Below are positions 26,962 through 28,421 of a DNA stretch of 29,089 nucleotides, piece after piece. This DNA comes from a virus. Taxonomy: Duplodnaviria; Heunggongvirae; Uroviricota; Caudoviricetes. Within the stretch, counting starts at the first letter, position 1. Every line of letters starts with the position of its first letter. The position numbers and the translations under genes are program-made. A model generated the notes under the pieces. The model saw nothing but the letters and a program-made list of their open reading frames with translations. It was not told the origin of the DNA and made no database searches. The stretch is taken from IMG/VR virus record IMGVR_UViG_2529292726_000018, positions 1-29,089 of that record, one strand, 5' to 3'.

Positions 26962-27384
26962 TCAATGCACTACGACAGAATCGCTAGGAGAACCGCCGCC
27001 GCTGAAATGTGCTTTACGGTAAACGGCCTGGACTGCATCATCATGCGCATCAATTGCCGTACTCAGTGCATCCTGTGCCGCCAGTAATGCACGGCGTTCC
27101 AGGGTATCGAAGATGCAGAGTCGGTGACGCAGCTCGCGAGGAAGAATTGCCAGAACCGCAGGGATCAGTTTCTGAATTTTTTCCCTTTGCGCATTCGTTT
27201 CACCTTTCAACCAACGATGATAGATATTCTGCTGATTGTTCCAGTCCTTGCCTGGTACCAGGGGCAATTCGCCGCCCCCCTGGTGCAGATATTCTTCAGT
27301 AATTGCGTTAGCGACCCACGCCTGCCCTTTTTCGGCTGCCAGGGCTAACAACACTGATTCGATGTGCTCATGCTTGATTTTCAT
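26962..27384 (-). CDS. YdaT-like protein (lambda cII position)
   Basis: 140 aa, coupled to the Cro-like gene by an ATGA overlap. Same position and size as Rac prophage YdaT. Assigned by synteny and size only. Confidence 0.45.
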   Translation of the reverse strand: MKIKHEHIESVLLALAAEKGQAWVANAITEEYLHQGGGELPLVPGKDWNNQQNIYHRWLKGETNAQREKIQKLIPAVLAILPRELRHRLCIFDTLERRALLAAQDALSTAIDAHDDAVQAVYRKAHFSGGGSPSDSVVVH

Positions 27385-27635
27385 GAATCAACTCCCATCA
27401 GCTTTTTCGTAGTAGTTTTATTTCTGCCAATAGTTAAAATTGCATCGGCAGAAAATAATCCGTTTGATGCATGAGCGATTTTTTCAGCGTAATTTGTTTC
27501 GCCGGTATATTCTGTGCGAGGCAATTTTCCGTTATCCATCCATTTGTAGATTGCTCTTTGGCTGACACCACAAACGTCGGCCACAACAGAAACGCGAACA
27601 GTTTTGATTACATCTTCAAGTGTTTTCTGGTTCAT
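27381..27635 (-). CDS. Cro-like HTH protein (YdaS-like)
   Basis: 84 aa from ATG 27635 with SD GAGGA. HTH segment VADVCGVSQRAIYKWMDNGKLP. Divergent from the repressor gene. Confidence 0.65.
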   Translation of the reverse strand: MNQKTLEDVIKTVRVSVVADVCGVSQRAIYKWMDNGKLPRTEYTGETNYAEKIAHASNGLFSADAILTIGRNKTTTKKLMGVDS

Positions 27636-27714
27636 ATCATCCTCACAATGTGAACTTTGAGTACATGCTATAACAGAACTGACAGTACATTCAAGAGCGA
27701 ATATCATTGAACTT
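27636..27714. promoter_or_regulatory. Divergent promoter/operator region between the Cro-like and repressor genes
   Basis: 79 bp gap containing AGTACAT at 27660-27666 and 27684-27690, TGAACTT at 27651-27657 and 27708-27714, and an imperfect 19 bp palindrome ATGTGAACTTTGAGTACAT. Confidence 0.6.
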
Positions 27715-28134
27715 ATGGTTCATGAAGATAAAGCGCGTAAAGAGTTCGCCAGTAGGCTTGCGCTAGCCTGTGAAAACGCTGGTTATGAACAACATGGAAG
27801 GCAGGCAGAAATTGCCCGTCGAATGAAATTAACACCAAAAGCGGTTAGCAAATGGTTTAATGGTGAAACAATTCCTCGCCGAGAGAAATTAAGGGAATTA
27901 GCAACACTCATTGGAACAACACCAACCTATCTTTTGGGAGAGGATACAGAAGAAAGTGGACAGATACGTTTCTATCAGGAGTTAAATCCAAGACAAAAAA
28001 TCATCATTGACCTTCTGGACGAGCTCCCTGACAGTGAGACAGATGAACTTTTAAAAACTCTTGAGGAGAAAAAACAGAAGTACAATGCAATTTACGAAGA
28101 GTTAGCACGAAAGAAAAAACAAAAAGCCTCTTAA
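27715..28134 (+). CDS. Phage repressor, XRE-family HTH (RacR-like; no S24 peptidase domain)
   Basis: 139 aa with HTH EIARRMKLTPKAVSKWFNGETIP; C-terminus is acidic and Lys-rich with no Ser/Lys autocleavage motifs. No SD before the ATG, so the mRNA may be leaderless like lambda cI from pRM. Confidence 0.8.
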   Translation: MVHEDKARKEFASRLALACENAGYEQHGRQAEIARRMKLTPKAVSKWFNGETIPRREKLRELATLIGTTPTYLLGEDTEESGQIRFYQELNPRQKIIIDLLDELPDSETDELLKTLEEKKQKYNAIYEELARKKKQKAS

Positions 28135-28199
28135 ACCAGCATAAATCCGGTAGCGTCCCCCTCCGGGTTTGTGCTTCACTTTATCCCGTCTCATTTTTT

Positions 28200-28255
28200 T
28201 ATACATAAAATGTACTTAAAGTACTTTACAATGATGAACACAAAGTACATTATAT
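28200..28255. promoter_or_regulatory. Candidate left operator/promoter downstream of the repressor gene
   Basis: ATGTACT at 28210-28216 (reverse complement of AGTACAT), AGTACT at 28220-28225 and AGTACAT at 28244-28250; the same motif family as in the 27636-27714 region. Confidence 0.45.
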
Positions 28256-28421
28256 ACCTACCAACCCACCCCGCCCCACAGAACGCCGGGCAATACTTCG
28301 AGTTACCAGGCAGTGGTCAGGGGTTAAGTAGCCAGCCCGAGGCGTATGAACATGACGGCGGGATTCAAATTTTGCAGTGCAGCAGTTAGTTCCGCCACCC
28401 GGCGTTAAGGGGATAGATAAG

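Follow-up and report, generated by a model that had tools for sequence, protein, structure and literature searches.

Three genes occupy positions 26962–28134 of the window (the whole 29,089-nucleotide stretch of viral DNA that was analysed): a ydaT-like and a Cro-like gene on the minus strand and, divergent from them, a repressor gene on the plus strand. RefSeq annotates the identical three in genomes that are 100% identical here. The arrangement that the original prediction had placed at 26962–28260, with a repressor opposing a Cro-like/YdaT-like pair, is thus confirmed. The genes, and the cassette to which two of them belong, are as follows:

26962–27384, minus strand: ydaT, encoding a predicted CII-like transcriptional activator of 140 aa (PF06254, E 6e-11; phrog_163, E 1.9e-35)
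27381–27635, minus strand: Cro-like repressor of 84 aa, with a 4-bp ATGA overlap with ydaT (translationally coupled)
27715–28134, plus strand: immunity repressor of 139 aa, in which an HK022-type XRE HTH precedes a DicA-type helical module at the C-terminus; it has no S24 peptidase domain
27391–28258, no strand: heteroimmune cassette made up of Cro, OR, the repressor, and OL/PL; it stands where K-12 Rac has racR-ydaS (blastn)

Cassette borders and DNA-binding proteins

By blastn, homology to the Rac prophage of E. coli K-12 flanks the cassette on both sides (26964–27390 at 92% and 28259–28703 at 98%), with nothing in between. As the Rac homology ends at 27390 and restarts at 28259, the intervening cassette is heteroimmune; its DNA is 70% identical to that of phage HK022 across 27465–27875 and 80% across 28196–28254. 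Genomes with the identical cassette identify the host element as a Rac-family prophage adjoining ttcA: in them, kilR-recET-xisR-intR-ttcA lies downstream, and the attachment site falls beyond the end of the window. The prophage is common, with 618 of 5426 complete E. coli genomes (about one in nine) carrying the cassette. A record for phage vB_EcoS-673R7 encodes an identical repressor, but we discounted it as proof of a viable phage, since the one paper naming it appears to be a genome-based survey of clinical isolates. A search of genome contigs for related loci returned a single, near-identical Shigella locus that was therefore of no use for covariation, and phage records and encoding contigs were used instead.

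In the domain search, the repressor hit HTH_3 (E 1.8e-9) but not the S24 peptidase domain (PF00717); it stops at 139 aa, and alignment with S24 relatives shows their S24 portion to be absent from it. Over residues 4–102 it shares 46% identity with HK022 CI (E 9e-32), its N-domain shares up to 72% with 235-aa S24 repressors, and the recognition helix TPKAVSKWFNGE is kept in common with these S24 relatives. Residues 30–137 were aligned by BLASTP with DicA (28% identity over 112 aa, E 8e-15), and the NCBIfam DicA model matched with E 2.7e-15 and 56 bits, short of the model cut-off of 101 bits. Used as a query, the C-terminal 62 aa retrieved 38 cluster representatives, 28 of which were aligned (120–216 aa) and carry the DicA-type module at their C-terminus; the remainder are short entries of 51–117 aa. 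The AF2 model of the repressor is all-helical (pLDDT 82). Foldseek of this model against the PDB returned generic XRE HTH domains only and none for the C-terminal module, for which Pfam likewise holds no model, and a PDB sequence search with the repressor found only the N-domain of P22 C2.

A self-cleaving S24 domain is normally the route by which DNA damage wakes a prophage. Since the C-terminus here is a DicA-type helical module and not an S24 peptidase, RecA-driven cleavage of the repressor is not expected. The earlier claim of a non-cleavable repressor with an HTH is in line with these domain searches.

The Cro-like protein shares 62% identity with HK022 Cro (E 1e-34) and 47% with Cro of the phi24B/933W type, and its gene is preceded by a Shine-Dalgarno sequence, GAGGA, at 27640–27644. 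It gave no alignment with DicC, an alignment of just 18 residues with YdaS (E 0.028) and no Pfam match to the YdaS domain (PF15943), only a weak one to HTH_17. The short alignment and the homology to HK022 Cro rule it out as a YdaS. The repressor is similarly ruled out as a RacR orthologue, given that only 33 residues of the HTH region align (12/33 residues, 25.8 bits). Of the label initially given to the locus, a Rac-type switch, the Rac-family prophage and the YdaT orthologue stand, whereas the repressor and Cro are not RacR and YdaS and the cassette is related to HK022.

Predicted operators and promoters

Within the cassette, we annotated the following sites (the palindromic operators are given without strand):

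27650–27666: OR1, predicted operator GTGAACTTTGAGTACAT; covers the PR start region, centre −57 from the repressor ATG
27667–27694, minus strand: PR, predicted; −35 TTGAAT (27689–27694), 16-bp spacer, TGn-TATAGC −10 (27667–27672)
27674–27690: OR2, predicted operator CAGAACTGACAGTACAT; overlaps the −35 hexamers of PR and PRM, 24 bp from OR1
27679–27707, plus strand: PRM, predicted by promoter scan; CTGACA-17-TATCAT, sigma-70-like, 10/12 consensus
27707–27723: OR3, predicted operator TTGAACTTATGGTTCAT; its centre falls on the start codon of the repressor
28138–28175, plus strand: stable hairpin that follows the repressor stop codon; as a candidate terminator, it would separate the PRM transcript from PL
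28210–28226: OL1, predicted operator ATGTACTTAAAGTACTT; overlaps the PL −35, homologous to HK022 oL TGTACTATTGGTACT
28225–28253, plus strand: PL, predicted by promoter scan; TTTACA-17-CATTAT
28234–28250: OL2, predicted operator ATGAACACAAAGTACAT; overlaps the PL −10, 24 bp from OL1

The 29 kb contain five copies of the heptamer AGTACAT/ATGTACT where 1.84 would be expected, and 3 of 100 shuffles reach five. This modest window-wide enrichment would, by itself, be compatible with chance AT-rich intergenic repeats that have no operator function. However, four of the five copies (27660, 27684, 28210, and 28244) lie inside 625 bp (Poisson P(≥4) ~1e-7), and the heptamer is a single arm of a 15–17-bp palindrome. 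A pattern built solely from the annotated operators of HK022 (KGWACTNNNRGTWCW, at most one mismatch) gave 12 strand-matches against 1.4 expected, a count that zero shuffles reached, and 10 of the 12 fall on five sites (27651–65, 27675–89, 27708–22, 28211–25, and 28235–49). Three of these sites lie between the divergent genes and two downstream of the repressor, where the motif clusters had been reported, and the lambda-like topology claimed for the locus—OR between the divergent genes, OL/PL beyond the repressor—is what we found. OR3, lying across the repressor ATG, was absent from the original prediction; HK022 has the same 15-mer, TGAACTTATGGTTCA, as its OR1 and OR3.

Six diverged loci share one operator layout, in which three sites are centred at −57, −33, and 0 from the repressor ATG and two more lie 24 bp apart. 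The relatives in this comparison came from HK022, Klebsiella, Salmonella, and metagenomes, and the repressor DNA-binding domains of the compared loci are 46–89% identical to the present one. In the six-locus alignment of OR, the operator-promoter core is nearly gap-free and the half-site columns are invariant. Full palindromes that fit an independently derived HK022 pattern, at positions and spacings kept to the base pair in six loci, make chance repeats vanishingly improbable. We regard the five palindromes as predicted operators, with their function assigned by homology and consensus: the homologies, site positions, statistical excess, and site conservation are direct observations, and they suggest repressor binding and cooperativity.

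PR, which is predicted to drive the cro-ydaT-replication genes, was assigned by homology because a generic promoter scan did not pick it up; its hexamers are placed relative to OR1 and OR2 as those of HK022 pR (X16093). The hexamers of PL correspond in placement to the annotated pL of HK022, TTTACA-17-CATCAT. PL is predicted to drive ydaG/ydaF (the downstream genes being DUF1391/YdaF), and in related prophages, from whose genomes the operon content is taken, the kilR-recET-xis-int operon is also under PL. Because a simple terminator scan missed the hairpin between the repressor gene and OL1, we treat it only as a candidate terminator; its RNA fold reaches −19.4 kcal/mol (z = −4.9), with 0/200 shuffles as stable.

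The −10 hexamer of PRM ends 7 nt ahead of the repressor ATG, no Shine-Dalgarno sequence occurs in the 25 nt upstream of this ATG, and relatives carry TATAAT, TATAGT, or TATGAT as the −10 hexamer at the same position. This conserved geometry makes a leaderless repressor mRNA, as originally suggested, plausible. Leaderless precedents are lambda cI and PaaR2 (PMC8630535), and a literature search for a leaderless HK022 cI found no relevant report. Lambda-style positive autoregulation of PRM is unlikely, since OR2 (centre −33) overlaps the predicted PRM −35.

YdaT and a model of the switch

The gene at 26962–27384, proposed to be YdaT-like, proved to encode a true YdaT: besides its PF06254 match, the protein is 94% identical to K-12 Rac YdaT over 140 aa. 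The label of phrog_163 is 'CII-like transcriptional activator', and H56 and R57—DNA-binding residues of YdaT (PMC11879457)—are present in the translation. One further site accompanies the gene:

27374–27391, no strand: putative YdaT-box TTGATT-N6-AATCAA, which covers both the start codon of ydaT and the stop codon of cro

This box is perfect and the sole exact match in the window (minus-strand sequence TTGATTCATGAAAATCAA). The footprinted K-12 YdaT-box is ATGATTCATGAAAATCAA, and K-12 YdaT has been shown to bind its box and to activate a reverse promoter 29-fold (PMC11879457); the box of CP-933P is again TTGATT-N6-AATCAA (PMC9986795). Inside cro, a YdaT-dependent PRE-like promoter had only weak candidates (7–8/12 consensus), none of them convincing.

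Taken together, 26962–28260 very probably controls lysis and lysogeny in a Rac-family lambdoid prophage, with an HK022-type immunity cassette joined to the Rac ydaT-replication module. In the mechanism we propose, repressor dimers would bind 17-bp palindromes (half-site ATGwACT), and cooperative pairs at OR1–OR2 and OL1–OL2 (24 bp centre to centre) would occlude PR, silencing the cro-ydaT-replication genes, and PL, silencing the early-left operon on the opposite side. HK022 CI is a precedent for cooperative binding and for OL–OR looping (PMC8053113). PRM would yield a leaderless repressor mRNA whose 5′ end is the ATG and, with OR3 on the start site and OR2 on the PRM −35, the repressor would regulate itself negatively through both operators. 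Cro expressed from PR would bind the same operators and shut off PRM. YdaT, a presumed CII analogue translationally coupled to Cro, would bind the TTGATT-N6-AATCAA box that overlies the ydaT start codon and activate a rightward (plus-strand) establishment promoter antisense to cro, leading to more repressor after infection. The PaaR2/YdaS/YdaT system sets a precedent for the leaderless repressor, OR, OL, and a YdaT-dependent PRE (PMC8630535). With a DicA-type helical oligomerisation module in place of a LexA-like S24 domain, the repressor would not be inactivated by RecA-stimulated autocleavage. Exit from lysogeny would then occur through an antirepressor (compare Rem, which acts on DicA [bioRxiv 10.1101/2023.04.14.536235], and the GfoA type of Gifsy) or through stochastic switching; short repressors of the Gifsy/DicA/RacR class have been described (PMC3121763).

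A different reading makes the locus an addiction-like unit, in which the essential job of the repressor is to restrain a toxic Cro-like/YdaT pair and there is no developmental switch. The toxin idea rests on the 2017 RacR papers. Silencing of racR is reported to be lethal in K-12 (PMC5700373, PMC5700377), and K-12 YdaT expression reportedly causes filamentation and death through rcsA activation (PMC11879457); the near-identity of the present YdaT to the K-12 protein and the Pfam name of PF06254, which still includes 'toxin', also favour it. Published work, however, treats YdaS/YdaT as Cro/CII analogues and toxicity as an over-expression effect (PMC5917428, PMC8630535, PMC9986795, PMC11879457), on which account the claim of a repressor-controlled toxin is weak. 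Jobling's letter and the current K-12 annotation call both proteins regulators, and in CP-933P the YdaT homologue is not toxic and the pair acts as Cro and CII (PMC8630535). At the present locus, Cro is of the HK022 type and no YdaS homologue, so the YdaS toxicity data do not transfer. A toxin module of two genes has no need of a second operon such as the one that the OL/PL operators would govern. Finally, the module is surrounded by a prophage that has replication, lysis, head, and tail genes and looks complete, so that loss of the repressor would mean lytic induction whether YdaT is toxic or not. We thus consider an addiction-like unit highly doubtful. Toxicity of YdaT on derepression may still apply, given how close it is to the K-12 protein, but it would then come as a by-product of a CII-like regulator and would not amount to a toxin-antitoxin design.

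As for how a lambda-style switch of this kind would be induced, tblastn found no homologue of Rem in the window or in three related prophages. No LexA box occurs at 0 mismatches in the window, where one-mismatch matches are at chance level, and none was found in the three related prophages examined (two complete relatives were among those searched). The sole KilA-N protein, at 22598–23371, was dropped as an antirepressor candidate: it is a full-length homologue of the abortive-infection protein BstA (phrog_6287, E 2.7e-89). A repressor devoid of an S24 domain, with neither LexA box nor Rem homologue in cis, is what one might find if an intact cassette had outlived its prophage—now defective or locked—and provided the host only with superinfection immunity and silencing. 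A strain with the identical cassette, THO-008, has a frameshifted replication O gene, and in K-12 Rac and Qin such switches persist within cryptic prophages. Here, however, the O-like gene is intact (262 aa), related elements have full morphogenesis and lysis genes, and antirepressors may come in trans from other prophages (PMC3121763). Moreover, diverged relatives retain Cro, ydaT, the YdaT-box, and each of the five operators, which argues for selection on the entire switch. A fossil switch is therefore unlikely.

The lambda-style switch that we favour is real but ordinary, an uncharacterised representative of a known type. The labels 'toxin YdaT' and 'Rac-type' likely mis-file what by sequence is a complete lambdoid switch with specificity parts of the HK022 lineage. 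Since the recognition helix is conserved and the operator consensus common, a common immunity specificity with HK022 is suggested. Tentatively, and with some doubt, if that specificity is indeed shared, the prophage might serve as an uninducible, trans-dominant immunity factor that blocks superinfecting HK022-immunity phages and could keep co-resident ones repressed during the SOS response; its own induction would then rely on an undescribed signal or antirepressor from outside the prophage. The locus also represents a natural domain swap—one DNA-binding domain and its operators, joined in some cases to an SOS-cleavable tail and in others to a non-cleavable one—and is therefore a convenient system for the evolution of induction mode independent of immunity specificity; aside from this swap, it is a mosaic of the expected kind. 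For this widespread E. coli cassette, five operators, three promoters, and a YdaT-box are now predicted to the base pair.

Comparison with known switches

One of the nearest known systems is the HK022 immunity region (X16093; Carlson & Little 1993, cited in PMC8053113), to which the cassette is homologous. The two regions are alike in Cro and recognition helix, have a common operator consensus and 3 + 2 layout with 24/33/24-bp spacing, place the PR and PL hexamers at equivalent positions, and centre OR3 on the repressor ATG. They differ in the repressor tail, HK022 CI being a 235-aa protein with a LexA-like S24 domain in contrast to the ~55-aa DicA-type helical tail here, and in the activator, which in HK022 is a lambda-type CII with TTGC repeats at pE and here YdaT with its TTGATT-N6-AATCAA box. 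An extra HK022 operator between cro and cII (163–177 of the locus used, L004) has no counterpart here, and the HK022 flanks are of the nun/N type whereas the flanking genes here are Rac-type.

The repressor architecture is that of DicA-DicC (Qin) and of Gifsy GfoR/GtgR, which also combine an XRE HTH with a C-terminal helical module in ~135–140 aa, likewise lack an Ala-Gly/S24 cleavage domain, and face a divergent Cro-like gene. In Qin, palindrome repeats lie between the genes and again downstream of the repressor, before a DUF1391 gene, as they do here. The Qin operator is nevertheless TGTTAGnnnnnCTAACA-like and differs from the present ones, DicC is unrelated to the present Cro, and the Rem antirepressor has no homologue here.

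K-12 Rac belongs to the same prophage family, and its switch, too, lies between the ydaG/ydaF and ydaU/ydaV modules, with an orthologous YdaT and likewise a YdaT-box over the ydaT ATG. Operator clusters flank its repressor gene too, but they are TAGGC/GCCTA repeats of different sequence. RacR (158 aa) and YdaS are not homologous to the present proteins beyond the HTH turn, and the counterparts of the overlapping cro and ydaT are 22 bp apart in K-12.

For the entire circuit, the experimentally best-supported analogue is PaaR2-YdaS-YdaT of CP-933P from E. coli O157:H7 (PMC8630535, PMC9986795). Its operators are GTTTAGTAA repeats unlike the present ones, a paaA2-parE2 toxin-antitoxin pair lies downstream of its repressor, and its YdaT is only ~30% identical to Rac YdaT. 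By its published description, however, CP-933P is alike in having a leaderless non-S24 repressor, OR/OL sets, PR/PRM/PL, and a YdaT-activated PRE, together with bistability.

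Operators and layout of the immunity switch

The feature is a real, well-defined lambdoid immunity switch that combines Cro, operators and a repressor DNA-binding domain of HK022 type with a DicA-type non-cleavable tail and the CII-like function of Rac YdaT. Every component comes from a described family, and their particular combination appears uncharacterised in the searchable literature. Three genes make up the module, the same three being annotated by RefSeq in genomes 100% identical across 26900-28300:

26962-27384, minus strand: ydaT gene, 140 aa (Pfam PF06254 'YdaT', E 6e-11)
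27381-27635, minus strand: cro-like gene, 84 aa, with an ATGA overlap with the ydaT gene (Pfam: weak HTH_17 match only)
27715-28134, plus strand: divergent repressor gene, 139 aa, XRE-type HTH (Pfam HTH_3, E 1.8e-9)

AGTACAT/ATGTACT motifs had been proposed to cluster both between the divergent genes and downstream of the repressor, and they do: against 1.84 expected copies, the 29-kb window holds five, four of which (27660, 27684, 28210 and 28244) fall inside 625 bp (Poisson P ~1e-7). The HK022 GenBank record annotates three oR sites (in order, TGAACTTATGGTTCA, GGAACTGATAGTACA and TGAACTTATGGTTCA) and two oL sites (TGTACTATTGGTACT and TGAACTTTAAGTACA), and we derived a degenerate operator pattern solely from these. 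It gave 12 strand-matches in the window versus 1.4 expected—a count reached by no shuffle—and ten of the 12 correspond to five sites:

27651-65: predicted OR1, 15-mer TGAACTTTGAGTACA
27675-89: predicted OR2, 15-mer AGAACTGACAGTACA
27708-22: predicted OR3, 15-mer TGAACTTATGGTTCA, identical to HK022 OR1/OR3
28211-25: predicted OL1, 15-mer TGTACTTAAAGTACT
28235-49: predicted OL2, 15-mer TGAACACAAAGTACA

In these palindromes, the heptamer of the original prediction makes up the right-hand arm; its four clustered copies stand, whereas OR3, centred on the repressor ATG, had been missed. The lambda-like layout, with OR between the divergent genes and OL downstream of the repressor, is supported. Relative to the repressor ATG, the OR sites are centred at -57, -33 and 0, and 24 bp separate the two OL sites. 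Among six compared loci—HK022, Klebsiella phage 2b (repressor with S24), two Salmonella prophages (short repressors, 62-65% identity) and two metagenomic relatives (89% identity)—the OR triad recurs in 6/6 and the 24-bp OL pair was matched in 5/6, none being matched downstream of the Klebsiella phage 2b repressor. The OR alignment of these loci is gap-free across the operator-promoter core, with gaps only upstream of OR1 near the cro start, and the operator half-sites are invariant. The strongest argument for the predicted operators being functional is that they are conserved in sequences this diverged. In the Salmonella prophages, the short repressor and the OL pair are separated by an inserted HigB/HigA toxin-antitoxin pair (3053-3720 and 3088-3755 of the respective loci, L011 and L012), which puts these operators ~900 bp away; the arrangement is reminiscent of CP-933P, where paaA2-parE2 follows PaaR2.

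Promoters, repressor architecture and induction

Three promoters were assigned to the switch:

27679-27707, plus strand: predicted PRM, CTGACA-17-TATCAT (generic promoter scan)
28225-28253, plus strand: predicted PL, TTTACA-17-CATTAT (generic scan; coincides with the annotated HK022 pL)
27689-94 (-35, TTGAAT) and 27667-72 (TGn-TATAGC), minus strand: predicted PR (homology only)

The PR hexamers are placed relative to OR1 and OR2 as are those of the annotated HK022 pR, and a GAGGA ribosome-binding site lies ahead of cro. The -35 hexamers of PR and of PRM both lie under OR2, so that the two promoters must compete and OR2-bound repressor should hinder PRM, whereas in lambda it activates this promoter. 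PL is overlapped by OL1 and OL2. The repressor mRNA is plausibly leaderless, as established for lambda cI and CP-933P PaaR2 (PMC8630535), since the PRM -10 ends 7 nt before the repressor ATG (27715), no Shine-Dalgarno occurs in the 25 nt upstream, and the -10 hexamer is kept at its position in all relatives (TATAAT, TATAGT or TATGAT). Directly after the repressor stop codon, 28138-28175 (plus strand) forms a stable hairpin (-19.4 kcal/mol, z -4.9), missed by a simple terminator scan, that may end the PRM (maintenance) transcript ahead of PL and insulate it from that promoter. Towards its 3' end, the cro coding sequence contains an inverted repeat (27421-27453, TTTCTGCC-N17-GGCAGAAA, read by eye).

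The Cro-like protein shares 62% identity with HK022 Cro (E 1e-34) and 47% with phi24B Cro, and the DNA is 70% identical to HK022 cro-OR-cI(N) over 27465-27875 and 80% to HK022 OL/PL over 28196-28254. Repressor residues 1-73 share ~50% identity with CI of 933W/phi24B-type Stx phages (tblastn, phage records), and residues 4-102 share 46% with HK022 CI. As had been claimed, the 139-aa repressor carries an HTH without a peptidase S24 domain (Pfam search). Close relatives of its N-terminal domain (up to 72% identity) are proteins of 235-240 aa with S24; in their multiple alignment, the recognition helix TPKA[V/I]SKWFNGE is identical and a ~55-residue tail stands where the S24 part sits. The C-terminal half instead resembles Qin-prophage DicA (28% identity across 112 residues, E 8e-15), and the NCBIfam DicA model matches at E 2.7e-15, under the cut-off.

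Used alone as a query, the tail retrieved 38 cluster representatives; in 28 aligned representatives (120-216 aa) it lies at the C-terminus, behind varied HTH domains, with the shared motif LxPRxxxLLxLFxxLPxSExDELxxxLEEKKxxY. In the AlphaFold model (pLDDT 82), the HTH domain has five helices and is joined by a low-confidence linker (residues 78-86) to a tail of one short (92-103) and one long helix (106-138); this tail matched none of the solved structures. The helical module (27946-28131, residues 78-139) has no Pfam model, and the small HTH proteins that end in it have N-domains of several unrelated kinds, YdaS-type and Phage_CI_repr-type among them. Such recurrence suggests a portable oligomerisation or antirepressor-target module.

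The repressor lacks S24 and belongs to the DicA/Gifsy class, whose members are under antirepressor control. DicA is controlled by the antirepressor Rem (bioRxiv 10.1101/2023.04.14.536235), and LexA-controlled GfoA/GftA antirepressors act on Gifsy prophage repressors (PMC3121763). A tblastn search of the window and three related prophages gave no Rem homologue, and no LexA box was found when the window and two complete related prophages were scanned. By analogy, induction could possibly proceed via a trans-acting antirepressor or by stochastic bistable switching, the latter reported for CP-933P and Qin. A KilA-N protein was considered as antirepressor and rejected: the only one (22598-23371, plus strand, 257 aa, running against the neighbouring operon) is homologous over its full length to the abortive-infection (phage defence) protein BstA (PF04383, E 4e-27; phrog_6287, E 2.7e-89).

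Prophage setting

The window is a portion of a Rac-family lambdoid prophage. At least some of the immunity region, used as query, is matched in ~2700 of 5426 complete E. coli genomes, 618 of which carry at least 80% of it. In strains with the identical cassette, the repressor is followed by ydaG/ydaF, sieB, kilR, ydaE, racC, recE, recT, ralR, xisR and intR, and then by ttcA, the Rac attachment locus. The opposite flank carries an O-like initiator gene, ydaV (DnaC-like) and genes for DUF1627, DUF977 and a Q antiterminator, along with trkG and genes for lysis, terminase, head and tail. The O-like replication gene, intact in the window (262 aa), is annotated as frameshifted in the E. coli THO-008 prophage with the identical cassette (19196-19985 of that locus, L001); some copies of the prophage are therefore decaying.

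Three perfect 19-bp palindromes, GTAACGC-N5-GCGTTAC (0.03 expected by chance), occur at 26499-26517, 26706-26724 and 26898-26916, spaced by 207 and 192 bp. The O-like gene (26096-26884, minus strand) contains two of them within its 5' half, in a part unlike K-12 ydaU, and the third closely precedes its start codon. All three are candidates for origin iterons or for sites bound by the initiator. An Rfam sok match (22073-22243, 101 bits) adjoins a 51-aa Hok-like ORF (21920-22075), making up a type I toxin-antitoxin locus of hok/sok type (21920-22243, minus strand).

YdaT and the comparison with K-12 Rac

The module had been described as Rac-type with a YdaT-like gene. The latter holds, YdaT being 94% identical to its K-12 counterpart, but the repressor and Cro-like protein are not RacR and YdaS, with alignments of 33 HTH residues and 18 residues only, respectively. 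DNA homology to K-12 Rac covers 26964-27390 (92%) and 28259-28703 (98%) and is absent between, and 27391-28258 is therefore a swapped, heteroimmune cassette containing cro and the repressor gene, with the control region between them and the motif cluster downstream.

Rac and CP-933P YdaT are tetrameric CII analogues that bind TTGATT-N6-AATCAA (PMC11879457; PMC9986795; PMC8630535). The K-12 box, ATGATTCATGAAAATCAA, lies over the ydaT start codon, and a reverse promoter activated by YdaT boosts repressor expression, 29-fold in K-12 (PMC11879457). The single exact box of the window (TTGATTCATGAAAATCAA, 27374-27391) covers the ATG of ydaT together with the stop codon of cro, exactly on the mosaic junction, and residues H56 and R57 are present in its YdaT; a YdaT-activated promoter was not found within cro. 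Overlapping the ydaT stop codon is a box-like sequence with two mismatches (ACGATTAATTTCAATCAA, 26948-26965). This could be a secondary YdaT site, as a YdaT tetramer is able to bind two duplexes at once (PMC9986795), or a chance match, as 2.8 two-mismatch matches are expected per window.

The locus might also be read as a repressor-toxin module, with toxins held down in RacR style. The 'repressor of toxins' view of RacR reportedly stems from 2017 mSphere papers. It was contested by Jobling, for whom YdaS and YdaT are Cro and CII equivalents whose ectopic expression is harmful, as with lambda CII (PMC5917428); direct evidence for the regulatory roles came from Jurenas et al., who did not see toxicity of CP-933P YdaT (PMC8630535), and current K-12 annotation lists YdaT as a transcriptional activator. 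In favour of toxicity, over-expression of K-12 YdaT does lead to filamentation via rcsA (PMC11879457), and by analogy the nearly identical window YdaT may act likewise. We regard this reading as minor, because this Cro is not a YdaS, and because two operons of an apparently complete prophage are governed by the module.

The cassette swap underlying the lambdoid switch is classic mosaicism of lambdoid immunity regions. K-12 Rac has operator-like repeats of its own (TAGGC...GCCTA, read by eye) at the two equivalent places, and in both prophages the right-hand junction lies just past the leftward-operon promoter.
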